Both the position numbers and the translations under genes were made by a program. The notes beneath the pieces are model-generated. The model searched no databases. It worked only from the letters and a program-made list of their open reading frames with translations, and was not told where the DNA came from. Shown here piece by piece: positions 24,658-61,200 of a stretch of DNA of 64,000 nt. Source of the stretch: Planctomycetaceae bacterium (lineage in GTDB: Bacteria; Planctomycetota; Planctomycetia; Planctomycetales; Planctomycetaceae); NCBI GenBank assembly GCA_047973435.1, contig JBKECA010000285.1, forward strand, positions 575 through 64,574, in the 5' to 3' direction. How positions within the stretch are numbered: the stretch's first letter is position 1; each line of letters begins with the position of its first letter.

Positions 24658-25625
24658 TAGAGCGCCTCCACATACGGCTCGGCCAGCGGCAGCGCGACGA
24701 CATGCCGTCGAATCTCCAGCACCTCATTCATGGCGGCTCTGGCGGTCGGGTTGAACTGATTCGCCAGACGCTCATCCTCCGAGACGATGCGCTTCATTCC
24801 AATTCTGACCTCCACGGCATTCGGCAACCTCTGTGCCGCGACACTATCCCACTCCGTTTGCCAGTTCAGACCGTCGAAATACCGAAACGACAGCGACACC
24901 ACTTCCGGCGCAAGCACACGCGACGCCTGCGCCAGCGAACTGAGGTCGTTCTCCTGATCCGCCTGGTCAATCGCCATCCGGTCCCCCGCCAGGCGGGCCA
25001 GCCCCTGGGGCCCGCTTTCCGTCAATCCCAGTGCGGCACCGCTCTGCTGCTGAGCCTGCTGACCAACTTCGCCTTCCAGACCACTGCTGCTGGCGTTCGC
25101 CAGAAAATACGTCACTGATTGCAGGTCACTGGTCCGCACATCGAGCGCTGCTCCTGTGGTCACAATGGAATAATTGAGGTCGCGTGCCGGGCGGTTGATG
25201 TGCAGCGTCAGCTTTACGGCATCGCCAATCAGCCCCACGCTGGTGGACTGCACCGCCGATTCCGGATCGACCGCGGTAATGGTTTCCGTCGTTGACGACG
25301 CGTCTGCTGACGAGCCATCTGTGGAATCCGCGGTCGTCGAAGTGCCACTGGTCACCGAAGTTTCACTGCTCTCGTCAGACTCCTCCTCGGACACGCGAAA
25401 GAGCACGGACTGGATGTCGAGCGTCATTTGGCGAAACAGCGCTCGCGCCACACGCGACCGCTCGATGACTGAGGCATCCGCCTGTGAGACGCGAATGTAA
25501 AGGCTGATTGCCGAGTAGATCGCCGTCACGAGCAGCACGCTCATCCCGAGTGCCACCATAACTTCCAGCAGCGTAAAACCGCGACGATTGAGTCCACCGC
25601 GGAATGGATGCGTCGACACGCGCAT
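24657..25625 (-). CDS. prepilin-type N-terminal cleavage/methylation domain protein (GspJ-like pseudopilin)
   Basis: N-terminus RRGFTLLEVMVALGMSVLL. The 322-aa size and operon position match GspJ. Confidence 0.6.
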   Translation of the reverse strand: MRVSTHPFRGGLNRRGFTLLEVMVALGMSVLLVTAIYSAISLYIRVSQADASVIERSRVARALFRQMTLDIQSVLFRVSEEESDESSETSVTSGTSTTADSTDGSSADASSTTETITAVDPESAVQSTSVGLIGDAVKLTLHINRPARDLNYSIVTTGAALDVRTSDLQSVTYFLANASSSGLEGEVGQQAQQQSGAALGLTESGPQGLARLAGDRMAIDQADQENDLSSLAQASRVLAPEVVSLSFRYFDGLNWQTEWDSVAAQRLPNAVEVRIGMKRIVSEDERLANQFNPTARAAMNEVLEIRRHVVALPLAEPYVEAL

Positions 25626-25626
25626 G

Positions 25627-26094
25627 TTATTCCTCCGCCGCGAGTGCGGCCTCGAGGAACAGGTCCGGGCTCCGCGTCAGTCGCGACAGAGTTACCGTGC
25701 CAGTCGGAGATTCGCCCGGCGGCTGATAGTAAGCGGTCACGTCCAGACGCACGAGATCGACATGCGGCCCTTCCGAGACCGTCAGCCCCCATTGCCAGTT
25801 GGGATCGTCGTCAAACGGCAATGCCGCCGCAGTCTGCATCGGATGCACTCCGGCCAGAACTTCACTGAGCGCCGTTTCCGCCCGCAGGACAGCATCTGCT
25901 TCCAGGCGTGCCTCCACAGACGCCCGTGACCCAAGAGTGATCAGCTGGCCAATCGCCGTCATCGCGACCAGAAAGATCCCCAAGGCCAGCATGACCTCCA
26001 GCAGGGTGAGGCCATGACGCTGCGACGTCGTTGTTTGTTGGTCGAGTCCCTGAGCAGCCAGCGCTTGATCGGATCGGAAACAATTCGCAGTCAT
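25627..26094 (-). CDS. prepilin-type pseudopilin (GspI-like)
   Basis: 155-aa ORF with the processing motif HGLTLLEVMLALGIFLVAM. Position is between the H-like and J-like genes. Confidence 0.6.
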   Translation of the reverse strand: MTANCFRSDQALAAQGLDQQTTTSQRHGLTLLEVMLALGIFLVAMTAIGQLITLGSRASVEARLEADAVLRAETALSEVLAGVHPMQTAAALPFDDDPNWQWGLTVSEGPHVDLVRLDVTAYYQPPGESPTGTVTLSRLTRSPDLFLEAALAAEE

Positions 26095-26921
26095 AGCCGC
26101 CGCTCCCGCACCAGCGGTCCCGACTGCACGCTGCCGGTCAGCCCCCGCAGGCTGATCTCGATTCGTCGTTCGCTGTCGTCGATCACGGCCACCGTCGCAT
26201 CATCAGCCGTGCCGTCCGAATAGAAGCGGATCGCGGGAGCCCAGCTCGTCTCCCTAAGCAAGTTCGCATCCGGCAGCATCGTCAGCCACTCGTCCGGAAG
26301 TTTCTCCGTAACCACCGCCTGATCCGCATGGGTGACCGCGTTGCGAACCTGCGGCACGTCGAACTCGCATGGCTCTGCAATAGTCCCCGAAAGTACAGGA
26401 ACGCTGACTGTCAGGGTCGGCGTCGTCACTGTCGACGAACTCGTACTGGTACTGCCGCCACTGCCGGTGTCCGGACGATCGTACGGAAGCACCACAAACT
26501 TGCGGCCGCCGGGCTCGAAGCGGAACTGGTATGTCAGACCCTGGTCAATCGCCTTGATGCGGGCGTTGTTCAACTCGACGCGAATGGTATGCGCCTGCTC
26601 GCGAATGCTCCGCTCGCGGATGTAGCGCAGCAGTGGTGGCCATGTGAGGCTGGCCAGGACAAGCAGGATCGTCAGAACCAGAATTACTTCCAGCAGGGTG
26701 AATCCGTGACACGCGGCTCGACGACGACCTGCAGCCCAACGTTGACCAGAGTTGGAGAGCCAGGCCGATGCCGGGAGAAACGTCCCATCGCCAACGCAGA
26801 CAGCCTCGTTGTCCAACGAAGTCGACGGTTGACTCCGTTCAGGCAAGACCGGCGACCATCGTGCGTGAGACAGGCACGTCACGCCATACGGTCTCGATCC
26901 ACCAGTAAGACGGATTGGCAT
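26091..26921 (-). CDS. prepilin-type pseudopilin (GspH-like), start uncertain
   Basis: The motif HGFTLLEVILVLTILLVLASL lies about 150 codons into the 357-aa ORF (26091-27164). The nearest upstream ATG is 26921 and a TTG lies at 26816. The long N-terminal extension is unlikely to be translated. Confidence 0.55.
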   Translation of the reverse strand: MPIRLTGGSRPYGVTCLSHARWSPVLPERSQPSTSLDNEAVCVGDGTFLPASAWLSNSGQRWAAGRRRAACHGFTLLEVILVLTILLVLASLTWPPLLRYIRERSIREQAHTIRVELNNARIKAIDQGLTYQFRFEPGGRKFVVLPYDRPDTGSGGSTSTSSSTVTTPTLTVSVPVLSGTIAEPCEFDVPQVRNAVTHADQAVVTEKLPDEWLTMLPDANLLRETSWAPAIRFYSDGTADDATVAVIDDSERRIEISLRGLTGSVQSGPLVRERRL

Positions 26922-27223
26922 GGCGACACTCGCGACGCGTGAGAATCTCAAAAGCGATCCGAGAATCTGGTGTGGCTGCGTTGTGTCGGAATGGGGTCGG
27001 CTGCCAGGCGGAACGACGAGGCGACTCCCATGACGAGTCGTCGAGGAGTTCCAACGCCGCAGACGGCCCCATCCCGACGCAACCCGAAGGGACGTCGGCC
27101 CTTGTGGCTCCCGCCCGCGTCGTTCGTTATCAGCCGGCCGATTTTTGACCTGTCTCCTCCTCACTCCGTGGCGGGAACCACAAGGTCCAACGCTGCCGTC
27201 ACGCCAACGTCCCGGATGGTCTC

Positions 27224-27718
27224 TTACTTGGAGTTGTCCACAGTCCAGTTGTTAATGTCATCGCCGCTGCCGCTTTGATTCTCTCCATCCGGCCCCGCCG
27301 ACCAGATCTTCGGTTTGCCCAGGCTGGCAGTGTCGCCCGAGCCGTTCCATTCGTAGTACAACTTGCGACCCCAGCCATCCTTGAACGGCTCATCGGTATA
27401 AGGTTCAACCTGCCGGCCGTCCTTTTGCTCTGGCTGCATCAGCATGTTCCAGACATCTTCGTTTCCGCTGGCTTTGGGGTAGTTGCCGAAATTGTCTTTG
27501 GCGTACAGGTTGAGCGCGCCCTCGGCATTCTTGATGGCGACCTTGCTGGCATCGATGTATGCCTGCCGCTGCTGGCCGAGCAATCGAGGAACAACCATCG
27601 CGGCGATGACGCCGATAATCGCCAGCACGATCAGCACCTCTAGCAGTGTGAAGCCCCGACGACGCCGGGATAGCGAACGCGAGGGAACAACGGAGTTACG
27701 GGAACGCACCTGCATCAT
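27224..27718 (-). CDS. gspG: type II secretion major pseudopilin GspG
   Basis: 164-aa product from ATG 27718 (MMQVRSRNS...RRRRGFTLLEVLIVLAIIGVIAAMVVPRLLGQQ). The C-terminal part (YPKASG...WGRKLYY...GPDG) is typical of GspG. The ORF-track extension to 28510 is rejected. Confidence 0.85.
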   Translation of the reverse strand: MMQVRSRNSVVPSRSLSRRRRGFTLLEVLIVLAIIGVIAAMVVPRLLGQQRQAYIDASKVAIKNAEGALNLYAKDNFGNYPKASGNEDVWNMLMQPEQKDGRQVEPYTDEPFKDGWGRKLYYEWNGSGDTASLGKPKIWSAGPDGENQSGSGDDINNWTVDNSK

Positions 27719-28399
27719 CAAAAGGCTCCTGATTCCTCGACAAACTCGTATCCGGCCACCCACAATCGAGATGGCATAAGAACTCTCGCCGAACTCAAAT
27801 GTTTGTGCCCGCCGTTTCGACTGAGGCCGTTTCGACTGAGATGGCTCAGGCGTCCACCGGCCGCGAGGGAGAACGTATCCTCTTTGGCCGCCTGCGGCAT
27901 GACACCGGCGTGTCTCCACAACCTCACTGGCAGCCGGGAGATACAACCTCATTAGGAAGGTATACGCAGGCTGCAATGCCCTGTCTACAGCGAATTGCAC
28001 GGGGCCGCGTTCTCGCGAGAAGAATGGGGTCGGAGATTCCCGTCGCTCTTGTCGCCGTTCCCGCTGCCAGCGAACGGGTTCAAATCCGAGGTCGAGATCC
28101 TGGCGCCCCGTCGGCCTGGAGTCCTGCCGGCCCGACCCGTCAGCTCCGGGAATCCATCGCGGACGGGCTGGCTCCGTTGCCTGCAAGTCTGCTACAGTTC
28201 GGCACTTGTGAAAGCTTGCACCCGTAGGCGTTCGGTGAGGCCGAAAGTGGTTCGGTGTCGCGCCGACGGGGCGACTGTATTCTCTTTTGATTGTGTCGCC
28301 CGAGAGAGTCTTGCGTCGGTTGGCGGACGAATGAGTCGTCCGTTTCAAACCGCGGCGAACCTCACAGGGCGGGGACAACTTCGGGAACCCCTGACTGCT

Positions 28400-30190
28400 A
28401 TGGTTGACCGTAACCTCATTCGTGAATTTCAAGTAGACGAGGCGTCGCTCGACGCCGCGCTCACCGAGGCCCTCTCGCACATCCCCGAAGCCTCCGGGGA
28501 AATGGATCACATCTACGATCAGACTGCCAGCTCCTTCGATTCGAATCAGATCGTCGAAGGCGAAGTCATTGGCGTCAACGACAACGAGGTGATGCTGGAC
28601 ATCGGCTACAAAAGCGAGGGTATTATCCCCCGCGGCGAGTGGATCGACGAAGAGCCGCTGCCCCAGCTGGGCGACCGCATCGAAGTGCTGCTCGAAGATT
28701 TCGAAGACGAGCAGGGGCTGATTCTCCTGTCCCGCCGCAAGGCTGTTCGCCAGCGGGCGTGGGACAAGCTGATGAACGATGCCGGCGAGGGAAGCATCGT
28801 CGAGGGCGAGGTCATCCGGAAGATCAAAGGGGGTCTGCTGGTCAATCTCGATGGCGGCGGCGATTCAGCCGACGGCGTCAACGTGTTTCTCCCGGCCAGT
28901 CAGGTCGACATTCGCCGTCCGCAGGACATTGGCGAATTCATCGGCAAGACGATTCAATGCGTGATCCTCAAAATCGACGACTCGCGCAAGAACATCGTCG
29001 TCTCTCGCCGCAAACTGATCGAAGATCAGCGGGCCGAGATGAAGCGCAAGCTGATGGCCGAAATCGAAGAAGGTCAAATCCGCAAGGGCGTTGTCAAGAA
29101 CATCGCCGACTTCGGCGCGTTCGTCGACCTGGGCGGTATCGACGGCCTGCTGCACATTACCGACATGAGCTGGGGCCGCATCAATCACCCCAGCGAGATG
29201 GTCAAAATCGACGATCAGATCGAAGTCATGATCCTGAACGTCGACCGGGAAAAGGAAAAGATTGCTCTCGGTCTCAAGCAGAAGGAAGCGAGCCCCTGGG
29301 ACAACATCGACAGCAAGTTCCCGGTCACCAGCCGCGTGAAGGGCGAGGTGGTCAACATCATGACCTATGGTGCCTTCGTCAAGCTGGAGGACGGCATCGA
29401 GGGGCTCGTGCACATCAGCGAGATGTCCTGGACCCGTCGCCTGCAGCATCCGTCGGAGATGGTCAACATCGGCGACGAAGTCGAAGTGGTGGTGCTCGGC
29501 ATCAACACCGACAAGCAGGAGATTTCGCTGGGTATGAAGCAGACCCAGCCGAATCCCTGGGACGATGTCACCGCCAAGTACCCCGTCGGCGCCAAGGTCA
29601 AGGGAACGGTTCGCAACCTCACCAACTACGGCGCTTTCATTGAGCTGGAAGAGGGGGTCGACGGCCTGCTCCACGTCAGCGACATGAGCTGGACCCGCAA
29701 GATCTCGCACGCTTCGGAACTCCTCAAGAAGGGGGACGAGGTCGAGTGCGTGGTCATCTCGGTCGACGAGAACCGCAAGCGTATTGCGCTTGGCCTCAAG
29801 CAGCTGGATGAGGATCCGTGGGAAACGACGATCCCGCAGAAGTATCACCCGGGCGCTGTCGTTACCGGCACCGTCACGAAGATCACCAACTTCGGCGTCT
29901 TTGTGCAGCTGGAGGAGCAGCTCGAAGGTCTCTTGCACATCTCCGAGCTAGCCCAGCACAAGGTCGACAACCCCGAAAGCGAAGTGAAGGTTGGCGAGCA
30001 GCTGGAGGTCCGCGTGCTGCGGGTCGACCCAGTCGATCGCAAGATTGGCCTGTCTCGCAAACTCGACGGCGAGATCGAGCCGGAAGAAACCGGCGAAGCC
30101 GCGGCCGGCTCGAAGGAGCCGCTCAAAGGTGGCATGGGCTCGTCCAGCGGTCCCCTCTTCACCATGGGTGGCGAGAAGACCGAAGAGTAA
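28400..30190 (+). CDS. rpsA: 30S ribosomal protein S1
   Basis: Six consecutive S1/OB repeats (for example [53 protein letters not shown]). I chose ATG 28400 ([10 protein letters not shown]). The upstream ORF extension from 27995 has no S1 similarity. Confidence 0.95.
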
Positions 30191-30290: not shown

Positions 30291-31865
30291 ATGTCTTGCC
30301 AGCGAAATCGAATCATGCCCCATCTGTTTTCGACGAATCGGTCTCGAGCGCGGCTCACCATCGTGGCGGCCCTGGCCGTGTTCGGCTTGTGCGGAGCCCC
30401 CGCTCCTGTCGCCGCCGCCAAGCCCAACGTCATTCTTGTCATGGCCGATGACCTGGGGATTGGAGACATCACCCCCACCAATCCCGACTGCAAGATCAAG
30501 ACACCTCACCTGCAGCAGCTGGCCAACGAAGGTCTGACATTCCTCGACGCCCACACTCCCAGCTCGGTCTGCACACCGACTCGCTATGGTTTGATCACCG
30601 GACGTTACAACTGGCGGTCTCGGTTGGCCAAAGGGGTGCTCTTTGGAGAGAGTGAGCACCTGATTCCCGCCGACCGACCGACGCTCGGCCATCTCATGCA
30701 GGCGGCGGGATATCACACCGCCATGCTCGGCAAGTGGCATCTGGGCTGGGACTTCCACAAGACCGACGGTCAAATCGACTTCACTCAGCCTGTAACCAAT
30801 GGGCCGGACATCAACGGCTTCGACCAGTACTACGGTTTCTGTGGGTCGCTGGATATGCCGCCGTACGTCTGGGTCGACACCGGAAAAATCACAGCTCTGC
30901 CGGATCGGGTCGAGGGCATCACTCGCAAAGAGGACGAGTACGGCTGGTATCGCGAAGGCCCGATCGGCGCGGACTTTCATATTCCCCAAGTTCTGCCGCA
31001 GCTGTTCAATCGGGCGATTGCCCACGTGCACCACCGTGCCGGTGAGGCGAAGAATGAGAAGCCCTTCTTCCTGTACTTTCCGTTGCCCGCACCACATACG
31101 CCAATCGTGCCTGTCTCGCCGTTTACGGGAAAGAGTGAGCTGAACCCGTATGCCGACTTCGTCATGCAGGTAGACGATTCGATCGGGGCGCTGCTCAAAG
31201 CGGTCCAGGAGTCAGGCATCGAACAGAACACGCTGGTCCTCTTCACCAGCGACAACGGTTGCTCCCCGTCGGCGAATTTTCCACTGCTGCAAAGCCACGG
31301 TCATCGGCCCAGCGGTCCTTACCGGGGCCACAAGGCCGACATTTATGAAGGGGGACATCGTGTCCCGCTGATCGCGCGCTGGCCCGGAGTCGTCCAGGCG
31401 GGAACACGAACCAACTCACTTGCTTGCCTGACCGATATTTACGCGACCTTGCGGGAGATCACTGGCCAGCCCGTTCAGTCCGTCGGCGGGGAAGATGGTT
31501 ATAGCCTGCTGCCGGTCTTTCGAGGCGAGGCCTCATCCGGACGTGATACGCTCGTCAGCCACTCCATCGAAGGTGCCTTCGCGATCCGACAAGGGGACTG
31601 GAAGCTGTGCCTGTGCGCCGGGAGCGGCGGCTGGAGCGATCCGAAGGAGCTGGTTGCCCGAAAACGGAATCTGCCCCCCATGCAGTTATTCAATCTGGCC
31701 GACGACATTGGCGAGCAGAAAAATCTTGTGGAGCAGGAACCTCAGCGTGTGCAGGCCCTGCTGGACCTGCTCAAACAGCAGGTGACCAACGGTCGCTGCA
31801 CGCCGGGACAAACGCTGGCCAATGACCGTCAGGTGAACTACCTGCCTGCCTCTGTCGCTCCGTGA
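30291..31865 (+). CDS. sulfatase (arylsulfatase family)
   Basis: 524-aa ORF with a signal peptide, then PNVILVMADDLG and the formylglycine motif CTPTRYGLITGR. Confidence 0.9.
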   Translation: MSCQRNRIMPHLFSTNRSRARLTIVAALAVFGLCGAPAPVAAAKPNVILVMADDLGIGDITPTNPDCKIKTPHLQQLANEGLTFLDAHTPSSVCTPTRYGLITGRYNWRSRLAKGVLFGESEHLIPADRPTLGHLMQAAGYHTAMLGKWHLGWDFHKTDGQIDFTQPVTNGPDINGFDQYYGFCGSLDMPPYVWVDTGKITALPDRVEGITRKEDEYGWYREGPIGADFHIPQVLPQLFNRAIAHVHHRAGEAKNEKPFFLYFPLPAPHTPIVPVSPFTGKSELNPYADFVMQVDDSIGALLKAVQESGIEQNTLVLFTSDNGCSPSANFPLLQSHGHRPSGPYRGHKADIYEGGHRVPLIARWPGVVQAGTRTNSLACLTDIYATLREITGQPVQSVGGEDGYSLLPVFRGEASSGRDTLVSHSIEGAFAIRQGDWKLCLCAGSGGWSDPKELVARKRNLPPMQLFNLADDIGEQKNLVEQEPQRVQALLDLLKQQVTNGRCTPGQTLANDRQVNYLPASVAP

Positions 31866-37414: not shown

Positions 37415-38242
37415 TCATGGCCAGATCGCGGCATCTTCGCCGTCGAGCCGCAGCGTTAGGCACTTGGCGCTTCCGCCCGCCTTGATGAACTCGTCCAGCG
37501 GCGTCGGGACGACGTGGAACCCCTGCTGCTTTAGTTCCGCCGTCAGCTGCGGACAACCGTTGTTGAGGATCACCGTAGTGCCAATCACGACGGCATTGCA
37601 CGCGAAGCGCGCGGCTTCGCTGTCTGGCACTGCGATCAGATTGGGAATCGCCCCCCGGATAGCCTTCTGACCGTATTCATCGAACGCCGCCGGATACCAC
37701 ATCGCCAGCCCCGGCCGCAGCGGACAGAAGCAGGTGTCGAGGTGATAGTAGCGGTCGTTAACCAGTTGCACCGGCAGAACCCGACAGCCGATCGCTTCCG
37801 CCAGCCACTGCATCGCCCGGGCATCACTGCGAAAGACATATCCGCCGACGAGTGTCTCGCCGCAGAACAGGGCATCCCCGGCTCCTTCGAAATCGAGATC
37901 GTCCGGGAGTTCCCGACAGGCCAGTCCATGCGACTCAAACCATTCCCGGTCAACCGGCGTCTCCGGCTGTCGGGCGGAGTAACGAAATCGGGACAGGTAC
38001 ACCGTCTCCCGATGCACGAGCCCGGCATTTGCCGTGAAGACCAGATCCGGCAGACCCGGTTTGGCCGGCAACAGTTCAATCTGACCACCGCAACTGGAAA
38101 TGGCGGCGCACAGCCCGTTCCATTGCTCGCGTGCGGCCGCCACGTCGGCACCACGCTGCCGATTCATCCACGGATTGATCTCGTACTCGATCCCGTAATG
38201 GTCTGGCGGACACATCAGAATGGTCGGCAGCTGGAACGGCAT
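37415..38242 (-). CDS. amidinotransferase / dimethylarginine dimethylaminohydrolase-like family protein
   Basis: 275-aa ORF starting ILMCPPDHYGIEYEINPWM and ending with the catalytic-Cys context GGSAKCLTLRL, typical of the guanidino-group modifying enzyme fold. Confidence 0.8.
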   Translation of the reverse strand: MPFQLPTILMCPPDHYGIEYEINPWMNRQRGADVAAAREQWNGLCAAISSCGGQIELLPAKPGLPDLVFTANAGLVHRETVYLSRFRYSARQPETPVDREWFESHGLACRELPDDLDFEGAGDALFCGETLVGGYVFRSDARAMQWLAEAIGCRVLPVQLVNDRYYHLDTCFCPLRPGLAMWYPAAFDEYGQKAIRGAIPNLIAVPDSEAARFACNAVVIGTTVILNNGCPQLTAELKQQGFHVVPTPLDEFIKAGGSAKCLTLRLDGEDAAIWP

Positions 38243-38256
38243 ATCTCGTCCGTGCT

Positions 38257-38344
38257 GTTATTCCGCACGCGGTCAAAGACGATACGTTCTGTCGCGTGGG
38301 ACTTGATCGTCCGAATCATCTCACTCGCTGACGCGGGCAATCGA
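38257..38344 (-). repeat. 87-bp inverted-repeat element, copy A (diverged)
   Basis: GTTATTCCGCACGCGGTC...CCGAATCATCTCACTCGCTGACGCGGGCAATCGA. It fills the 104-bp spacer between the gpx stop and the amidinotransferase start. Confidence 0.8.
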
Positions 38345-38346
38345 CG

Positions 38347-38949
38347 TCATGGGGTCGACAACGGCTTGACCAGTTCCGCCTGAACGGCCTTTGCCAGCTC
38401 CGCGTCCGTCGGCTCGGTTCCTGTGCCGAAACGGGCGACGACCTGTCCGTCCCGGCTGATGAGAAACTTCTCAAAGTTCCAGCCGATGTTGCCAGTCCCT
38501 TTGGGCCTGGTCGTCTGACTCGTCAGGTACTTGTAGAACGGTGCCGCCTGCGGGCCGTTGACGTCAATCTTGGCGAACATCGGAAAGGTGACGCTGTATT
38601 CTCGTGTGCAGAACGCCGTGATCTCCTCGGCCGATCCTGGTTCCTGAGCGCCAAACTGGTTGCACGGAAAGCCGAGCACCACGAGGCCGTCCCCCTTGTG
38701 CTCCTGATACAGACGCTGCAGGTCGGCGTATTGCGGAGTCGCTCCGCACTCACTGGCCACATTCACTACCAGCAGGACCTTCCCTTGATAATCCGCGAGA
38801 TTCACGGACTTTCCATCCAGCGACTGGACTTCGTAATTGAGTGCTGCGGGCACGGTCTTGTCCTTCGGTTCAGCAGCCAACACAGAGGCGGTCAGGGTCA
38901 ACACGGTCAGACAGGCGTAGCGAAGCATGCAAATTCTCCCGAGGGTCAT
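38347..38949 (-). CDS. glutathione peroxidase
   Basis: 200-aa ORF with a signal peptide and GPx motifs NVASECGATPQY and LGFPCNQFGAQEPG. Confidence 0.9.
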   Translation of the reverse strand: MTLGRICMLRYACLTVLTLTASVLAAEPKDKTVPAALNYEVQSLDGKSVNLADYQGKVLLVVNVASECGATPQYADLQRLYQEHKGDGLVVLGFPCNQFGAQEPGSAEEITAFCTREYSVTFPMFAKIDVNGPQAAPFYKYLTSQTTRPKGTGNIGWNFEKFLISRDGQVVARFGTGTEPTDAELAKAVQAELVKPLSTP

Positions 38950-38974
38950 GGCACCGTTTATCCGATTCCCATTC

Positions 38975-39060
38975 TATACCGCACGCGGTCAATGTTGATA
39001 CGTTTTGCCTCGCGGGGCTTTAACGTCCGAATCATCTCACTCATTGCCGCGGGCAGTATA
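38975..39060 (-). repeat. 87-bp inverted-repeat element, copy B
   Basis: TATACCGCACGCGGTCAATGTTGATACGTTTTGCCTCGCGGGGCTTTAACGTCCGAATCATCTCACTCATTGCCGCGGGCAGTATA, ending 25 nt upstream of the gpx ATG. Confidence 0.9.
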
Positions 39061-39144
39061 TACCGCACGCGGTCAATGTTGATGCGTTTTGCCTCGCGGG
39101 GTCTTAACGTCCGAATCATCTCACTCGCTACCGCGGGCAGTATA
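39059..39144 (-). repeat. 87-bp inverted-repeat element, copy C (head-to-tail with B, sharing TA)
   Basis: Same unit as B with about 5 substitutions. The junction reads CAGTATATACCGC, so the two copies overlap by the dinucleotide TA. Confidence 0.9.
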
Positions 39145-39169
39145 GACGCTGGCGGGCAATGGCCAGGAG

Positions 39170-40297
39170 TCATTCGTCTCCGAGCAGCATTCTCAGATAT
39201 CCCTGATACCGCAGACTGGCGATCTCACCTCGTTCTACGGCCTGTTTTACAGCACAACTGTGTTCGTGCGAATGGGTGCAGTCCGGAAATCGGCAGTGAG
39301 GAATGTGGGGCAGGAAATCTCGGAAGTAACCCTCAATCTCAAATGGGGCGACGTCCCACAGTTGCATCTGGCGAATTCCCGGTGTGTCCACGATCCAGCC
39401 CCCACTTGCCAGTGGTAGCAGCGCTGCGACTCGGGTGGTGTGTCGCCCCTTGCCGGAATCCTCACTGACGCCCCCTGTCGCCAGTTGCTGTGAGGAGTCG
39501 AGCGCATTGATCAGCGAGGACTTGCCAACCCCGCTTTGGCCGGCCACCACACTCACGCGGTCGTGCAGAATGGATCGCAGCGGCTCAATTCCTTCCCCCG
39601 TCACGATGCTACTGAGCACGACGTCGTAACCGATGCGACGATAGATATCCGCCACGTGCTCCAGGTCCGGGCGGTCGACCAGATCGACCTTACTGATGCA
39701 GACGACAGGCCGAACGCCCCCTTTTTCGGCGCTGACGATGAAACGGTCAACAAGGGCTGGCTTCAGTTGTGGCTCGGCCGCCGAAGTCACGATGACCGCC
39801 TGATCGATATTCGCCGCGATCACGTGCTCGTGCCGATCGCTGCCGCGCGAGATCGTGGTGCGGCGGGTCTCGACACGCACAATCACGCCGTGCCAATCAT
39901 CCTGTGGCTCCACCAGCACCTGGTCCCCCACGACGACGGCATTCCGCACGTCGCGAGACATCGTGCGGACAAGACGCCGCACAGTGCACTCCAGCACGCG
40001 ACCATCGCCCCCTTGCACGGAGCAGTGATTCGCCCCGATGGCTCGCAGCACCCGTCCGGCCATGCAACGTTCAGCGTCGACGGCCAGTTGAGGCAGCGCA
40101 CTACCGACATCGCCATCGGCGAGCACTGTGCGACGACGCGTGATGGCCCCCTTGCCAGTCAGTCGTTCGCTCTGCTGTCGGTCGGCTGCGGCGTCGAGGT
40201 CTTCGAGTGCCTTGTGAGTCAGGTTCTGCTCGCGAGCACGGCCCGCTCGATTCTTCCGAAATTCCACCCGGACCTTCTTGGGGCGTTTACCAGTCAC
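39170..40297 (-). CDS. rsgA: ribosome small subunit-dependent GTPase A
   Basis: Circularly permuted GTPase motifs (NIDQAVIV..., VVAGQSGVGKSSLINAL, DTPG) and the C-terminal zinc knuckle CRFPDCTHSHEHSC. The GTG start at 40297 overlaps the upstream stop. Confidence 0.9.
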   Translation of the reverse strand: MTGKRPKKVRVEFRKNRAGRAREQNLTHKALEDLDAAADRQQSERLTGKGAITRRRTVLADGDVGSALPQLAVDAERCMAGRVLRAIGANHCSVQGGDGRVLECTVRRLVRTMSRDVRNAVVVGDQVLVEPQDDWHGVIVRVETRRTTISRGSDRHEHVIAANIDQAVIVTSAAEPQLKPALVDRFIVSAEKGGVRPVVCISKVDLVDRPDLEHVADIYRRIGYDVVLSSIVTGEGIEPLRSILHDRVSVVAGQSGVGKSSLINALDSSQQLATGGVSEDSGKGRHTTRVAALLPLASGGWIVDTPGIRQMQLWDVAPFEIEGYFRDFLPHIPHCRFPDCTHSHEHSCAVKQAVERGEIASLRYQGYLRMLLGDE

Positions 40298-40818
40298 GGT
40301 TGTTCGTCATCACTCAACCATCGGGCGGCGTCGTTTTCGCTGTCCGTAAACTTGGAATCGTCGCGGGTCACCGGACGACTCGATCGCGCCCGGGGGGGGC
40401 GGGCCTGCTGACGCATCAGGCCCGCCTTTTCCAGCAGACCGATGGCCAGCGGATCCTCCTCCTCCTGTGGCGGCGGCGCATCGGCCGCGGGCTGATATCC
40501 AATCTTGAAGACATGCCGCGCCACTGACAGTTCATCCCCCGGTTGCAGCCAGTGAGAGTCACAGCGTTCGCCGTTGACTTTGATTCCGTTGCGGCTGTTC
40601 AGGTCGCGTACGAACCAGAAACCGTTCGTCAGCTCCAGCTGACAATGCTGGGACGACACATTCGGAAAGTCGAGGACGACGTCGCAATTCGATCGACGAC
40701 CGATAAGCACGCGGGGCTTCAGCAGCGGAATGGGATCGCCGCCTCCGACTGGATTCAGTTCACCGTAGTCCTGCACTGTGGCCATAGTCTCCGCCCGCTG
40801 CCTGAACCCGGCCGCCAT
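40294..40818 (-). CDS. FHA domain-containing protein
   Basis: 174-aa ORF with an FHA core VLIGRRSNCDVVLDFPNVSSQHCQLELTNGFWFVRDLNSRNGIKVNG. Confidence 0.85.
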   Translation of the reverse strand: MAAGFRQRAETMATVQDYGELNPVGGGDPIPLLKPRVLIGRRSNCDVVLDFPNVSSQHCQLELTNGFWFVRDLNSRNGIKVNGERCDSHWLQPGDELSVARHVFKIGYQPAADAPPPQEEEDPLAIGLLEKAGLMRQQARPPRARSSRPVTRDDSKFTDSENDAARWLSDDEQP

Positions 40819-41000
40819 CTGCGACCCTTGGCTATGACACTAACCCCACCAATACGTCAAGTCAATCGGCAAGCGGCCAACCGTTTGCAAGATGATGTTC
40901 GGATTCGACGCGCGTATTGCCGGACAGTGAGAGGCTACCAAGCCTCCATAATGGCGACCAGAGCGGGCAGCGCCGACGATGACAATCGGCCGTGACGGCA

Positions 41001-42587
41001 TCACCGGGGTGGAATCGATGGCTTCTTCAAGACCGCGGGGCGTCCCACCTGCTCGGGATTGTCGATCCCGAACATCGCGCCGTTGGTCAGGTTGGCCTTG
41101 GACGAACCCCCTTTCCACAAGTCCCATTTCGGATCGGCATACTGACCGAAAAAAGCGTGCAGTCGGGACTGTAGTTTGTCACGCAGACGATCCAACTCCG
41201 AGTTGTCGATCAAGTTGTTGTGTTCGTCCGGGTCAGCGGTCAGGTCGTAGAGTTCGTTCGGCTCCTGATGGACGCGTTCAATGTATTTCCATTGCGGCGT
41301 GCGAATGGCCCGGACGTTTTCGAATTCGTAGTAATGGACCTCGTCCCAATCCGTCGGCTGATCGTGCAGCAGTGGACCGAAGTCGCGACCGGGTGAGCGG
41401 GGAGACTGCGGTATCCGATCAGCGAGCCCCAGTTCGGTCAACAAAGTGGGATACAGATCGTAGTTACTGACCATCTGAAGAACGCGGCGGCCTGCCGGCA
41501 CGGTCCCCGGTTGTCGCAGGATAAGCGGGATCGTCATGCCCCAATCAAAGGCCGTCAGGGGGCGGGTATGGTCTCCCATGCCCCAATAGCCAGCGTGGCC
41601 GCCCGAGCATCCCTGGTCGGATGTGAAGACGACCAGAGTGTTCTCGTCCAGTCCATGCTCCTTCAATGCTTCCATTACCCGTCCGACGCCGTCGTCGATG
41701 CCACTGATCTCCGCAGCGTATTTGCGAATGACCTGGAGATCGCCGATCCAGTCGCCGTAGTTGTGATTCCACGGTTGTGGCTTGGTCCGCGGAAAAGAGG
41801 GCAGCGTCCTGTCCGCGTAGAACCCCGCGTGTCGATTGTGGATCGGTTCACGCATTGCCGGAGCAAGGCCATAGGGGCCGTTATAGGGCAAGAACAAAAA
41901 AAACGGCTGGTCCTTGTGATCGGCGATGAACTGAACCGCGTGATCAGTCCACAGGTCGGTCAGATACCGCGGTTCCTTGCGGGTCTCGCCGTTCTCAATC
42001 ACCTCCTGATCGTAAAAGCCCGCGCTACCGCCGTGGGGCTTGGTGATCCAGTGGGAAAAGCCGTCCTGGGGCGTGGCGTTGGCCCCTAGATGCCACTTGC
42101 CGCACATGCCCGCCACGTAACCTGACTCAACCAGAATTTGAGGAAGCGTGTCAAACTCTTCCAGAGTGTAATACGCCTTGGGGCCAGTTTGAGCGCCACC
42201 TCCTGCGAGAAACCGATGGACCCCATGCTGACAGGGCATCAGTCCGGTAAGCAGCGTGGCCCGTGTCGGCGAACAGACGGCGTTATTCGCCAGGGCATGC
42301 TCGAACAGCGTTCCTTCCTTCGCCAGCTGATCGAGATGCGGGGTCCGAATGTCCGGATTACCATAGCAGCCCAATGTCCAGGGGCTGTGGTTATCGGTCA
42401 AAATCAGAACCAGGTTACTCCGCGCGCGGTCAGTATTGATTCGTTCTGCCTTGCCGGATTTTAACGTCCGATCCGTCTCACTCGCTGCCGCGGGCAGACT
42501 CGTCTTCTTCTGGGCACACAAATGACTTGTGCCGCACAGAACAAGCAGAAGCCACTGCAATTGAGAGCTTCGTCGAACTCGCATCAT
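41001..42587 (-). CDS. sulfatase carrying an in-frame copy of the 87-bp element after its signal peptide
   Basis: Formylglycine motif CSPTRATLLTGL and metal-site start NLVLILTDNHS. I chose ATG 42587 (MMRVRRSSQLQWLLLVLCG signal peptide). Confidence 0.9.
   Translation of the reverse strand: MMRVRRSSQLQWLLLVLCGTSHLCAQKKTSLPAAASETDRTLKSGKAERINTDRARSNLVLILTDNHSPWTLGCYGNPDIRTPHLDQLAKEGTLFEHALANNAVCSPTRATLLTGLMPCQHGVHRFLAGGGAQTGPKAYYTLEEFDTLPQILVESGYVAGMCGKWHLGANATPQDGFSHWITKPHGGSAGFYDQEVIENGETRKEPRYLTDLWTDHAVQFIADHKDQPFFLFLPYNGPYGLAPAMREPIHNRHAGFYADRTLPSFPRTKPQPWNHNYGDWIGDLQVIRKYAAEISGIDDGVGRVMEALKEHGLDENTLVVFTSDQGCSGGHAGYWGMGDHTRPLTAFDWGMTIPLILRQPGTVPAGRRVLQMVSNYDLYPTLLTELGLADRIPQSPRSPGRDFGPLLHDQPTDWDEVHYYEFENVRAIRTPQWKYIERVHQEPNELYDLTADPDEHNNLIDNSELDRLRDKLQSRLHAFFGQYADPKWDLWKGGSSKANLTNGAMFGIDNPEQVGRPAVLKKPSIPPR
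42414..42499 (-). repeat. 87-bp inverted-repeat element, copy D (inside the sulfatase ORF)
   Basis: GTTACTCCGCGCGCGGTCAGTATTGATTCGTTCTGCCTTGCCGGATTTTAACGTCCGATCCGTCTCACTCGCTGCCGCGGGCAGACT. It is translated as ..AAASETDRTLKSGKAERINTDRARS.. Confidence 0.8.
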
Positions 42588-42795
42588 GGCATTGCACTCC
42601 AAATCGAGTCGCTCGACTCGTCAGCAACGTGGGTCACAGAAGGGGCGGCCATTCGCCAGTGTGATTGAAGTCAATCACACTGTCTGAGACCATAAGATAG
42701 CAGGGCTCATCAAAAATCCAGTGACGGGGCCTGTTCGCACGAGCCGTCAGCAAGACCGGACGGCTGATCTTGCCAAACGTTTCTTGCCAGACCTG

Positions 42796-42882
42796 ATACT
42801 GCCCGCGGCAGCGAGTGAGACAATTCCGACGTTTAAGCCCCGCGAGGCAAAACGTATCAACATAGACCGCGTGCGGTATAAC
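42796..42882 (+). repeat. 87-bp inverted-repeat element, copy E
   Basis: ATACTGCCCGCGGCAGCGAGTGAGACAATTCCGACGTTTAAGCCCCGCGAGGCAAAACGTATCAACATAGACCGCGTGCGGTATAAC, ending 28 nt upstream of ATG 42911. Confidence 0.9.
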
Positions 42883-42910
42883 AGAGTTCGACGTCTCCGG
42901 GGAGCGCCTC

Positions 42911-43885
42911 ATGTCACGGCAGCATGACAAGTCGACAATCTCCGCTGGTTTGCTCTTCCTGATGATGGTCGCCGTTCTGCCGGCCGAGTCGCCAACAGCA
43001 GACGAGTCGATCCCGAGTGCCCTGCGACGTTTGGGTGCGGAGGACTTTGACATCCGCACGGCTGCCATGCGGACTCTACTGGACGCTGGCGTTGCCGCTG
43101 TTCAGCCTCTCGCTGAAGCGGCCAGCCATGAGCCGGAACGAGCAACGGAGTTCATGGCGCTGCTGGACAAACTGGCACGTAGCCCGGATCAACTCGTGGT
43201 CCAGGCAGCGGACGAAGCCATCCGAGATCTGGCTTACAGCGAGCACGTCACGGTAGCGCAAGCAGCACGCAGTCTGAGAAGACCAGGCGTGCCATACACC
43301 GAGGAGGACCGGCAGCGCCTGGGACTCATTGAAATGCTCCCCGTCATCAGCCGGATCGTCGACAATCGTCGTGAGACCCGCTTCATCGATGATGAACGTC
43401 CGGTCGAGATCATCGAGTTCGCCTCTGGCCGCATCTATGTGAATGTTTCTCAAAGCACCAATGACCAGACAGGCAACGTTGTCGTAACTGCCGACAATGC
43501 GGAGCAATTGCGCGAGAAGAACGCCGGGGCGTTTGAGCTCTATCAACGGCGGGAAAAACGACTTCCTCGGAATTGGCACACTGATCTGTGGGATTTTGTG
43601 CAGAACAAGACACGCTCGCCCCGCAGCACCAGCATCATGCAAAGCTCCAGTCATCGTCGCATTCGCTGCTTTGAAGAGATGCATCAAGTCGATATCGTCG
43701 AGGGGCTCGGTTCTCCCGTCCAGGTTCGGATCATTACGCTCATTAATGGCAACGATGTGGTTCAGGAAATAGAAGGACCTGACTTCGAGTCCATCCGACG
43801 GCAGGCGCCGCAAGTCGCCGAAATCTGCGATCGACTGCGCAAAGAGGCCGATGTCCGCACTCCCTGGTCGCCCATGTTTCCTTAA
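42911..43885 (+). CDS. hypothetical secreted protein
   Basis: 324-aa ORF with a signal/anchor segment (ISAGLLFLMMVAVLPA) and a HEAT-like helical N-terminal part. I recognise no family. Confidence 0.55.
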   Translation: MSRQHDKSTISAGLLFLMMVAVLPAESPTADESIPSALRRLGAEDFDIRTAAMRTLLDAGVAAVQPLAEAASHEPERATEFMALLDKLARSPDQLVVQAADEAIRDLAYSEHVTVAQAARSLRRPGVPYTEEDRQRLGLIEMLPVISRIVDNRRETRFIDDERPVEIIEFASGRIYVNVSQSTNDQTGNVVVTADNAEQLREKNAGAFELYQRREKRLPRNWHTDLWDFVQNKTRSPRSTSIMQSSSHRRIRCFEEMHQVDIVEGLGSPVQVRIITLINGNDVVQEIEGPDFESIRRQAPQVAEICDRLRKEADVRTPWSPMFP

Positions 43886-43915
43886 CTACTCTCCGAGGGA
43901 GAGTGGTGCGTCTGT

Positions 43916-44033
43916 CATTGTGCTCGCGACACGACCTGAGAAGATACGGACGTTGGCCCCCCGCAAGGCAATCCGGATCGCCATTGACCCGGATTGCCAT
44001 TGACCCAGATCGCCATTGACCGCGGGCGGTCTC
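43916..44033 (+). repeat. 87-bp element, copy H (degenerate, with internal 3 x 16-bp tandem amplification)
   Basis: CATTGTGCTCGCGACACGACCTGAGAAGATACGGACGTTGGCCCCCCGCAAGGCAATCC aligns to the left and central parts of the consensus. Three units follow (GGATCGCCATTGACCC / GGATTGCCATTGACCC / AGATCGCCATTGACCG), then CGGGCGGT. Confidence 0.6.
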
Positions 44034-44136
44034 GAGGGCTCGCACCTGGATCGGTCACACGCAGGGCCCTGTCGGCGTCGGCTTGTGGCAGCGATCGACT
44101 CCGTCGTTGCTGAGGGCACTCGATCCCCCCGTTCCT

Positions 44137-46032
44137 TCACCGCTTCGATTTGGCTGAGTCCGGGTCGAGGGACGTGACGATATGCTCAATGAGCCGATCG
44201 CAGTAGTTGGCTGTGCGTCCTGATGCGTTGGGATCCGTCCGGGGGAGCTTGGCAACCTCGTCCTTGATTGAGGCTGCCTTGTCGCCGAGATAGTCGATCG
44301 CGTTCAGCGCCGCGATGGCATTGTAGAGTCCATGCTTTTGAGGGTTGGCGTACTCCAGCAGTACCGGCAGTGCGAGAGCAGCATCGTCCGCATTGCCGTA
44401 CCGGCCGAGAGCCTCGGCGGCAACCACCTTCAATGCGGCAGACTTGTCTTGATTCAGCGCCATCCGCAATGGCTCGCGTGCTGTCGCAACGGCCTCTTTC
44501 CCGTGAACCTCGAGTCCGATGACCTTCCAGAACGCGATCATTGGAGAGTTCTCGATGTCCTGGTCAGACAATGTGTCGGTTGCTGCACCATTGTCTCCCG
44601 TCGATGTCAGACTCATCGCCTTTTCAATCGCGGACGACAGGAAGCCGGCATCCCGTGTCTGCATGTAGTCATAGATCGTCGTCTTTTCATTCCATTCGTT
44701 CCGCATCGACTCCGGGGCGATACCGGCATCTCGCGTTAAAATCATGTGTGCCTTCAACGCCTCGGCCAGTTTGTTGCGAGTTGCGACATGGGCGGAATCA
44801 TCCGCGAGATTCTGTACCTCATCCGGATCACTCTTCAGGTCATACAGTTCTTCAGACGGTTTGGGCTCCCAGAAGTGCGACTGCGCTGCGTTGCACTTCC
44901 CGGCCTTCCACAGGTCGTTCCACACCCGCGTCGTTGGCGTCTGGAACATATAGTCCACATGCTGGCCGCAGGGCAGGTGGGGCATAAAATTGCGAATGTA
45001 AACGTACCGTCCATCGGTGATGCTCCGGATCATGTCGATCCGTTCGTCCATCCGGCCGCGGAAGCCGTAAAGGTAAGCCTGCGGCTCCGTCGCCTGCGCG
45101 CCGAGGAACGCATGTCCCTGCATTGTTTCAGGAATCTGGACGTCGCACAGGCTCAACAGGGTCGGCGCCAGATCCACAAAGCTCACCAGCCGCTTGCTTG
45201 CTCCACCTCCCTGAATACAGTCTGACGTCGCCAGGTCTTTCCACTTCTCCGGGATATACACGATCAGCGGCACATGCAGGCCGGAGTCGTACGGCATCCG
45301 TTTCGACCGCGGCATGCCGCTGCCATGATCGCCGTAATAGAACACGATCGTATCTTCCGCATGTCCTGCCTCTTCCAGTTCCTTCAGGTTCTGACCGACC
45401 AGCTTGTCCATCATGGTGATGCGGTCGTAGTACTGGGCCCAGTCCTTGCGGACCTCGGACGTGTCGGGATGGTATGCCGGCACACGTACCTTGGCTGGGT
45501 CGTGAATCCGATCCCCGGCGTCGATCTTATTCCGGATCTGGCTTTCGTGACTGATGGTGTGGTTGAAAATCGCGAAGAACGGCTCACCAATCGGACAATT
45601 CCTCCAATGGGCTTTGGGACTGGAATCGTCCCACACGGTCCCGTTGGGAATGACGTTGTAATCCGTTTTGGAGTTGTTGGTACAGTAGTAGCCCGAGTCC
45701 CGCAGGTACTGCGGATACAGCCGGATCGTGTCCGGCACCTTCACATCCGACCGCATGTGCTCCGCCCCCAGAGTGGGAGGATACATGCCAGTGATGATCG
45801 TTGTCCGGGCCGGCGCACAGACTGGCGCATTCGACCAGCAATGCAGATACCGGCAGCCCTTGGCCGCCAGGGCATCGATGTTTGGCGAAACGGCGTTCGC
45901 ATCACCGTAACAACCCAGCTGGGGGCCGTTGTCTTCAGAGGTGATCCAGAGGACATTCGGACGATCGCCGGACCAGAGTGGCGAGACCAGAACGGCGAAT
46001 GCCGTGAGTACCTGCCGAAAGGAGAACTGCAT
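44137..46032 (-). CDS. sulfatase with C-terminal HEAT-repeat extension
   Basis: 631-aa ORF with a signal peptide, PNVLWITSEDNG and the motif CAPARTTIITGM. The C-terminal ~150 aa is helical-repeat-like (AAEALGRYGNADDAALALPVLLEYA...). Confidence 0.88.
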   Translation of the reverse strand: MQFSFRQVLTAFAVLVSPLWSGDRPNVLWITSEDNGPQLGCYGDANAVSPNIDALAAKGCRYLHCWSNAPVCAPARTTIITGMYPPTLGAEHMRSDVKVPDTIRLYPQYLRDSGYYCTNNSKTDYNVIPNGTVWDDSSPKAHWRNCPIGEPFFAIFNHTISHESQIRNKIDAGDRIHDPAKVRVPAYHPDTSEVRKDWAQYYDRITMMDKLVGQNLKELEEAGHAEDTIVFYYGDHGSGMPRSKRMPYDSGLHVPLIVYIPEKWKDLATSDCIQGGGASKRLVSFVDLAPTLLSLCDVQIPETMQGHAFLGAQATEPQAYLYGFRGRMDERIDMIRSITDGRYVYIRNFMPHLPCGQHVDYMFQTPTTRVWNDLWKAGKCNAAQSHFWEPKPSEELYDLKSDPDEVQNLADDSAHVATRNKLAEALKAHMILTRDAGIAPESMRNEWNEKTTIYDYMQTRDAGFLSSAIEKAMSLTSTGDNGAATDTLSDQDIENSPMIAFWKVIGLEVHGKEAVATAREPLRMALNQDKSAALKVVAAEALGRYGNADDAALALPVLLEYANPQKHGLYNAIAALNAIDYLGDKAASIKDEVAKLPRTDPNASGRTANYCDRLIEHIVTSLDPDSAKSKR

Positions 46033-58163: not shown

Positions 58164-58364
58164 GATGACGATTGCACCTCAACCCAACTGCCCCCCCACT
58201 TCCGCCACAAGGCATCGTAATTCGCGGCTCTCGGAAGCGAAACGGCAGCCGGTCGGCCGACGTGCGCGAGATCACTCGCGCGGCGACACCTCGGCAGCCA
58301 TGAGCGATTTGTTCGTTTCCAACGCTGCCAGCGTCGGAAACGAAGTCCCGGGCAGATCATCTGT

Positions 58365-58382
58365 GACTGCGTGCGGTATAAT
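58365..58382 (+). repeat. solo right end of the 87-bp element (fragment G) carrying a perfect TATAAT
   Basis: GACTGCGTGCGGTATAAT compared with consensus GACCGCGTGCGGTATAAC. It lies 113 nt upstream of ATG 58496 on the same strand. Confidence 0.55.
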
Positions 58383-61112: not shown

Positions 61113-61200
61113 TATACTGCCCGCGGCAACGAGTGAGATGATTCGGACGTTAAAGCCCCGCGAGGCAAAACGTATCAACTTTGACCGCGTGCGGTATAAC
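61113..61200 (+). repeat. 87-bp inverted-repeat element, copy F
   Basis: TATACTGCCCGCGGCAACGAGTGAGATGATTCGGACGTTAAAGCCCCGCGAGGCAAAACGTATCAACTTTGACCGCGTGCGGTATAAC. It is almost identical to the reverse complement of copy B, 22 kb away. Confidence 0.9.

Follow-up and report, generated by a model that had tools for sequence, protein, structure and literature searches.

A MITE-like palindromic repeat probably inserted in frame between signal peptide and catalytic domain in a Planctomycetaceae sulfatase

[quoted passage not shown] QMITE2 of Coxiella burnetii gives rise to both internal in-frame insertions and C-terminal extensions (PMC5896051). The Rickettsia palindromic elements (RPEs; Ogata et al. 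2000) are likewise short palindromic mobile repeats with a stop-free frame, as far as they are described in the works that cite them (PMC10969869, PMC3733652). The GTAG and CGTC families of REP sequences have been reported in Planctomycetes (PMC3733652), and a full-text literature search on Planctomycetes and MITEs returned no description of an element such as the one reported here. We analyzed a stretch of 64,000 nt from a Planctomycetaceae bacterium (assembly GCA_047973435.1, contig JBKECA010000285.1, positions 575 to 64,574; hereafter the window), in which a sulfatase gene on the minus strand at 41001..42587 carries one copy (copy D) of a dispersed 86-nt palindromic repeat. We consider it probable that a mobile, MITE-like element inserted in frame into this sulfatase gene, at a point that separates the signal peptide from the catalytic domain. 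The original prediction had drawn a parallel with the RPEs; the precedent holds, but in-frame colonization is not special to Rickettsia, as the BOX, ERIC, QMITE1 and Anabaena examples demonstrate.

The likeness to RPEs is one of behavior. According to the same citing works, RPEs also lie in frame inside functional-looking genes and add a peptide outside the core fold, yet they measure ~100-150 bp, reside in obligate intracellular Alphaproteobacteria and have a large fraction of their copies within genes, whereas in our window only 1 of the 9 copies sits within an intact gene, and a free-living Planctomycetaceae bacterium is the host. A sequence relationship is not expected and we claim no membership in the RPE families. 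ERIC-type elements have terminal inverted repeats with 5'-TA-3' at both termini (Delihas, PMC3184786), and our element shares with ERIC and Correia-type MITEs a length in the range of ~85-150 bp, these terminal repeats and TA ends, a whole-element hairpin and a mostly intergenic location between co-directional genes, but differs from them in consensus sequence and host phylum. QMITE1 and QMITE2 of C. burnetii overlap open reading frames (ORFs) and donate amino acids (PMC5896051), as our element does in the sulfatase and in a transposase fragment described below (P0250). The QMITE cases mostly touch gene ends or hypothetical proteins, whereas the present one is internal and separates the signal peptide from the catalytic domain of a well-conserved enzyme. 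Finally, REP/REPIN sequences mobilized by RAYTs (PMC3733652) are also abundant extragenic palindromic repeats that form hairpins, but they are doublets of 20-40-nt REPs, as opposed to a single 86-nt unit with TA-flanked terminal inverted repeats. Assignment to REP/REPIN was rejected, as neither end of the consensus carries a GTAG or CGTC tag. In-frame element insertion is thus already known from other bacteria, and what is new here is a MITE-like repeat family in this lineage; only the insert's apparent conversion into a hydrophilic linker goes slightly beyond precedent. The sulfatase case leaves the general understanding of such elements unchanged, and offers a clean example of a mobile repeat surviving in a conserved enzyme gene, in a free-living phylum without an earlier case in the literature searched.

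Repeat search, MAFFT alignment and an nhmmer profile delineated an 86-nt element with terminal inverted repeats, present in the window in six full and three decayed copies:

38259-38344, minus strand: copy A, intergenic, flanked by the glutathione peroxidase and DDAH-like genes, with 16/84 differences from the consensus
38975-39060, minus strand: copy B, in the spacer that separates the RsgA gene from the glutathione peroxidase gene
39059-39144, minus strand: copy C, in the same spacer as copy B
42416-42501, minus strand: copy D, within the sulfatase ORF (repeat search, MAFFT, nhmmer)
42795-42880, plus strand: copy E, intergenic, inverted relative to D
61113-61198, plus strand: copy F, intergenic, flanked by the RlmN and DUF1501 genes, antisense to both
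27832-27900, plus strand: decayed copy G, intergenic, upstream of a pseudopilin gene (nhmmer E=1e-7)
43919-44030, plus strand: decayed copy H, intergenic between convergent genes (nhmmer E=4.5e-7 and 0.35)
58344-58380, plus strand: truncated copy, right arm only, intergenic between the MurD-like and CN-hydrolase genes (nhmmer E=0.009)

The consensus of the family is TATACTGCCCGCGGCAGCGAGTGAGATGATTCGGACGTTAAAGCCCCGCGAGGCAAAACGTATCAACATTGACCGCGTGCGGTATA. Its 14-nt terminal repeat, TATACYGCMCGCGG, occurs 12 times in the window against 1.2 occurrences expected by chance. The terminal inverted repeats (13-14 nt) consist of TATACTGCCCGCGG at one end, which pairs with CCGCGTGCGGTATA at the other (12/14 identical), and they form the closing stem of the predicted element hairpin. 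Young copies fold as a whole into a predicted RNA hairpin of -27 to -31 kcal/mol (z -1.7 to -3.2), and TA or TATA is conserved at both of their ends, the consensus itself ending in TATAC.. and ..GTATA. Copies B and C (38975..39144) are arranged head to tail with a period of 84 nt and the TA in common at their junction, from which it follows that one insertion adds 84 nt, or 28 codons. At 86 nt, the element has no coding capacity for a transposase and the only ORFs found in it are read-throughs with variable ends. All window copies except D are intergenic, and the window carries roughly one copy every 7-10 kb.

The gene that harbors copy D encodes 528 amino acids, with an ATG ATG start at 42587/42584 and a stop at 41001; a TTG lies upstream at 42602 and an in-frame stop at 42623. 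Its relevant features, besides copy D itself, are:

41001..42587, minus strand: S1-family (formylglycine-type) sulfatase ORF, intact (Pfam, alignment, PDB homologues)
42501..42587, minus strand: signal-peptide-like N-terminus, codons 1-29 (read from the sequence)
42395..42416, minus strand: first beta-strand NLVLILTD with the metal-binding Asp and Asn, starting directly after copy D (AlphaFold2 strand E58-64, alignment)

The Pfam Sulfatase domain (PF00884) occupies residues 58-386 (E=9e-48) with an SGSH_C domain C-terminal to it, and S1 sulfatases of the PDB match at E down to 1e-45, with alignments beginning at query residue ~53-58. The C-x-P-x-R motif is present as C105-S-P-T-R109 and is invariant together with D65 and N66. 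All 77 invariant columns of the family alignment are kept in the protein, I62, D65 and N66 among them, and the catalytic part (1.5 kb) is free of frameshifts and stops. Two paralogous sulfatases in the window have short linkers, one at 30291..31865 on the plus strand (..VAAAKPNVILVMADD) and one at 44137..46032 on the minus strand (..WSGDRPNVLWITSED).

The N-terminus of the sulfatase reads MMRVRRSSQLQWLLLVLCGTSHLCAQKKTS-LPAAASETDRTLKSGKAERINTDRARS-NLVLILTDNHS. Its signal-peptide-like portion can be divided by eye into an n-region (MMRVRR), an h-region (LQWLLLVLCG) and a c-region (HLCA/QKKT). The 84-nt unit of copy D (42417-42500) then encodes residues 30-57, SLPAAASETDRTLKSGKAERINTDRARS, and the peptides encoded through the copy include TSLPAAASETDR and AERINTDR. 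Copy D matches the nhmmer profile at E=1e-22 and is 81% identical to the consensus (16/84 differences), copy A being equally diverged. Only 2 of the 6 frames of the consensus are stop-free, one forward (ILPAAASEMIRTLKPREAKRINIDRVRY) and one on the reverse strand; copy D uses the forward one, and its 84 nt are divisible by three. In-frame ATG, GTG or TTG codons are found at 42602, 42587, 42584, 42560 and 42521 and none inside copy D, where the in-frame ATG of the consensus (GAG ATG ATT) reads ACG. There is also none in frame between copy D and the metal-binding strand; the next start is a TTG at 42401, within the LILTDNH strand that holds the invariant metal ligands D65 and N66. Because of this lack of a downstream start, the full catalytic domain would be made only by translating through copy D from the upstream ATG. 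The original prediction had described the same order of signal peptide, segment and NLVLILTDNHS, had assigned ~28 middle residues to the element, had pointed to the two paralogues with short linkers and had excluded a usable start beyond the element, and on all of these points our analysis concurs. The element copy it had proposed is real, but the coordinates given for it (42414-42499) were ~2 nt off.

We aligned the 119 best homologues of the sulfatase, which are 57-70% identical to it in the full alignment and belong mostly to Planctomycetaceae, including Maioricimonas and Gimesia; the best homologue is 72-74% identical by BLASTP. The segment of residues 30-57 is absent from all of them (119/119), and the best non-self phmmer match to the peptide of copy D among the homologues had an E of 2.6. 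Homologues carry an equivalent signal peptide directly ahead of the first strand, and in all of them no more than a few residues lie between it and the motif (R)P(T/P)N-[LV]-V-L-I-[LM]-T-D-N-H. The first strand is preceded by 57 residues in our sulfatase versus a median of 32 in homologues, and the gap between the signal-peptide core and the strand is 36 residues versus a median of 7-8 (106 scorable homologues). Only two Luteitalea proteins approach this gap length (33), and their linkers are unrelated in sequence. Excision of 84 nt yields ..LCAQKKT-NLVLILTDNHS, with normal spacing and a T-N junction as in the three closest homologues (..PTNLVLILTDNHS), and the reconstructed site, ..AC[TA]AC.., holds the TA that flanks other copies.

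The predicted structure is in line with these comparisons. An AlphaFold2 run with a 120-sequence alignment gave a mean predicted local distance difference test score (pLDDT) of 88 and a predicted template-modeling score of 0.87. In this model, a coil with a pLDDT of ~52 or less extends over residues 1-57 and the fold starts with strand E58-64, so that Pfam, PDB alignments and the AlphaFold2 fold all begin at residue ~53-58. An N-terminus composed of a signal peptide and a disordered linker outside the predicted fold fits the model, though the coil by itself is weak evidence because the alignment is empty over the insert. Of the checks that had been proposed with the original prediction, the comparison with related sulfatases and the structural model came out in its favor: the segment is missing from all aligned homologues, the closest of which is not syntenic, and residues 1-57 are modeled as low-confidence coil. 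Its central proposal, that the linker is best explained by an in-frame insertion, agrees with the homologues, the distribution of the peptide, the structure and the start codons.

We infer transposition as the mechanism, with a TA target and its duplication, as well as translation and export of the extended sulfatase. A non-autonomous, MITE-like, TA-targeting palindromic element would have transposed into the sulfatase gene at a TA spanning a codon boundary, ..AAG AC[T A]AC CTG.. (K-T|N-L). The insertion point would lie after the signal-peptidase region and before the first beta-strand, in a naturally unstructured stretch, and between signal peptide and first strand is a place where proteins can absorb such insertions. 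The insertion would have fallen in the only forward frame without a stop codon; with a unit of 28 codons and a stop-free forward frame, the sulfatase ORF would therefore have stayed open. The mature exported enzyme would be lengthened at its N-terminus by ~28 disordered residues that lie outside the fold. Copy D may then have diverged under protein-level selection that replaced nearly all hydrophobic residues by Ser, Thr, Asp or Ala and also removed the internal ATG (-> ACG), with the hairpin losing its excess stability.

This last step draws on the composition of the encoded peptide. Hydrophobic residues (ILVMFWYC) number 9 in the consensus, 8 in the equally diverged intergenic copy A and 3 in copy D, and full copies other than D keep 8-10. 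Copy D shows the changes I>S, M>T, I>D, I>T, V>A and Y>S. A count of 3 or fewer hydrophobic residues was reached by 0.015% of 20,000 simulated stop-free copies to which 16 random substitutions had been applied (P=0.00015); 37% of all simulated copies with 16 substitutions gained a stop. Over 20 aligned positions, copy D has 2 hydrophobic residues as opposed to 6-10 in 26 other copies from the window and from the metagenome-assembled genome (MAG) described below. The hairpin of copy D has lost most of its excess stability (z=-0.6). The loss of hydrophobic residues suggests that copy D has been translated. A more far-reaching proposal is that the segment is more than tolerated junk and that selection has remodeled it into a hydrophilic, disordered tether at the N-terminus of the exported sulfatase. 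The six lost hydrophobic residues, the lost internal ATG and the weakened hairpin speak for it, and we regard it as a tentative idea, somewhat doubtful at present. If true, no earlier case of a selfish palindromic repeat domesticated as a protein linker would be on record for Planctomycetota, and the family, with exactly 28 codons and two stop-free frames, would be pre-adapted for in-frame survival, as are RPEs. The one-sided hydrophobic loss would likewise represent a small case of a selfish insert improved after insertion.

Several observations weigh against an in-frame insertion by a mobile element and its later refinement. We found no empty site, close orthologue or strain variant, and the best sulfatase homologue (72-74% identical) resides in a different gene neighborhood. 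The window contains no transposase with matching terminal repeats, and the evidence for mobility of the element and for TA duplication is indirect. The ends of copy D, GAGT..AGTA, differ from the TATA ends of the consensus, and an AGT..AGT direct repeat at the copy allows an alternative reading as an 81-nt insertion; an 81-nt excision between the two AGT codons yields ..KKTSNLV... The hydrophobicity statistic was picked after the data had been seen, and the family consensus only approximates the ancestor of copy D, since subfamilies exist. The mature N-terminus of the extended sulfatase is net positive, and a net positive mature N-terminus can hinder Sec export in model bacteria. Signal peptide, expression and export of the extended protein are themselves predictions from the sequence.

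These points bear most directly on the alternative that the insertion inactivated the sulfatase or stopped its export, leaving a young pseudogene or a non-exported remnant in which the open frame is a matter of luck. The linker is net positive directly after the signal peptide, the two other sulfatases in the window make redundancy plausible, and with 1/3 frames open per orientation the prior of an open frame is about one third; expression, too, is deduced from the nucleotide sequence. We nonetheless find this alternative unlikely, given that 77/77 invariant residues are kept and neither a frameshift nor a stop has arisen despite 16/84 substitutions in copy D, when 37% of equally mutated simulated copies gain a stop. 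Directional hydrophobic loss (P ~1.5e-4) would moreover be unexpected in untranslated DNA, and the equally old copy A is without it.

The remaining alternatives dispute how the junction came about. Copies D and E form an inverted pair separated by 301 nt, with 78% complementarity over 91 nt, and exactly the 5' untranslated region, start codon and signal peptide of the sulfatase lie between them, as though the pair had moved as a composite and supplied a new promoter, start codon and signal peptide to a sulfatase that had lost or never had its own. Their ages differ greatly, with D at 81% and E at ~94% identity to the consensus, homologues all have their own signal peptide at this position, and excising D alone restores the standard architecture. 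As no second copy of the 301-nt segment was seen in the window and an ordinary intergenic insertion accounts for E just as well, we hold a composite to be very unlikely. It is possible that the inverted pair forms a long-range RNA or DNA structure or has a regulatory effect. Slightly less probable still is an assembly artefact, in which a metagenomic assembler would have fused two unrelated contigs through a copy of the repeat, giving the gene a chimeric 5' end: the window appears to derive from a MAG and dispersed repeats are classic points of mis-joining, yet copy D differs from all other copies along its whole length, its longest exact match to another window copy being 23 nt and those to 4 of the 5 only 11-12 nt, well below the k-mers with which assemblers usually end. 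A plausible signal peptide, the reading frame and the start of the domain also fit on both sides. Least credible of all is a reversed direction, with a linker ancestral to the sulfatase lineage from which the dispersed repeat arose; it is a formal possibility only, faced with the absence of the segment from 119/119 homologues and with copy D being among the most diverged copies, when it is the young copies, nearly identical to one another, that possess the complete hairpin and terminal repeats.

The in-frame insertion of a mobile element is also to be viewed against the distribution of the family beyond the window. One MAG, "Planctomycetaceae bacterium" (locus tags ACK5Q5_*), from which the window most likely derives, carries at least 20 further copies, spread over more than 10 other contigs. 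The translated stop-free frames of the element were searched in 5.8 billion proteins and, exhaustively, in 1.84 billion cluster representatives, and apart from the sulfatase itself the matches were confined to this single MAG, consisting of short ORFs over other element copies and of one truncated IS66 transposase ORF. GTDB species representatives and JGI metagenome contigs were scanned with four exact or IUPAC patterns, which gave no element among the matches listed, and blastn of copies B and C against PLSDB plasmids gave no match. By nhmmer, no element copy was detected in ~52 kb from the nearest relatives (L006-L008, RsgA 81% identical) or in ~43 kb around sulfatase homologues (L001-L005). 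Since the pattern scans, protein searches and loci of relatives gave copies in one MAG only, the family looks restricted to this lineage. The neighbors of the sulfatase homologues P0007, P0002 and P0005 (L001-L005) differ from those in the window. In the nearest relatives only the FHA-RsgA pair is conserved with the window, and the gene order around the element-rich region has therefore been reshuffled. In the same three loci, the sulfatase, peroxidase and DDAH-like genes are not adjacent.

The truncated transposase ORF, P0250 (MFV0445371.1), lies on another contig of the MAG. It is annotated as a 173-aa "transposase" and consists of an IS66-family DDE fragment (Pfam positions 34-167 of 284), from which the ORF runs on through a nested pair of element copies in reverse and forward orientation. 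This is a second intragenic insertion of the element, disruptive in this case, and the element therefore does enter genes. The IS66 fragment was the only transposase encountered, and it is a target of the element rather than an evident parent. In the copies from other contigs, the codon following ..RVRY nearly always starts with A. Element subfamilies are exemplified by ..EAERINIGRVRY.

The internal ATG of the element (GAG ATG ATT) leads gene callers to emit at least 20 short "hypothetical proteins" in the MAG (P0122-P0129, P0251-P0264), and spurious ORFs also overlie the window copies at 38975-39144 and 61113-61198. The short ORFs over element copies begin with MIRTLKPREAKRINIDRVRY. As they begin in the element and then run into unrelated flanks, these proteins are annotation artefacts.

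Within the window, copies A, B and C occupy nearly the entire spacers (38243-38346, 38950-39169) between the co-directional minus-strand RsgA, glutathione peroxidase and DDAH-like genes, and they are probably co-transcribed with the flanking genes, as ERIC and REP elements are. A bias in orientation, with all copies along local transcription, was rejected because copy F is antisense to both neighbors. Copy E is located 208 nt upstream of the sulfatase ATG and 30 nt before the ATG of a divergent ORF (42911..43885). The right arm of the element presents outward-facing -35-like hexamers (TCAACA, TTGACC) at 38971-38998 and 39055-39082 on the minus strand; together with the TA end and the flank they make the only two sigma-70-like matches in 38100-44200, a number not above the shuffle expectation.

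Rfam at gathering thresholds gave no match anywhere in the window, and a permissive Rfam search of 38200-39200 left the element copies unmatched. A weak Hammerhead_II match at 38424-38472 (plus strand), within the glutathione peroxidase gene, scored 20 bits against a gathering threshold of 37 (E=0.28) and is probably due to chance. Copy G was rejected as a second coding copy, since the overlying ORF 27224..28510 is an over-extended pseudopilin gene, and the domains of this gene begin ~140 nt past the copy. This ORF over-extends the last gene of a pseudopilin-like cluster at 25533-27690 with an N-terminal methylation motif, where the repeat family D3 corresponds to the conserved motif region. 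Inside copy H, part of the right arm is present as a short tandem triplication (~17 nt, GATCGCCATTGACCC).

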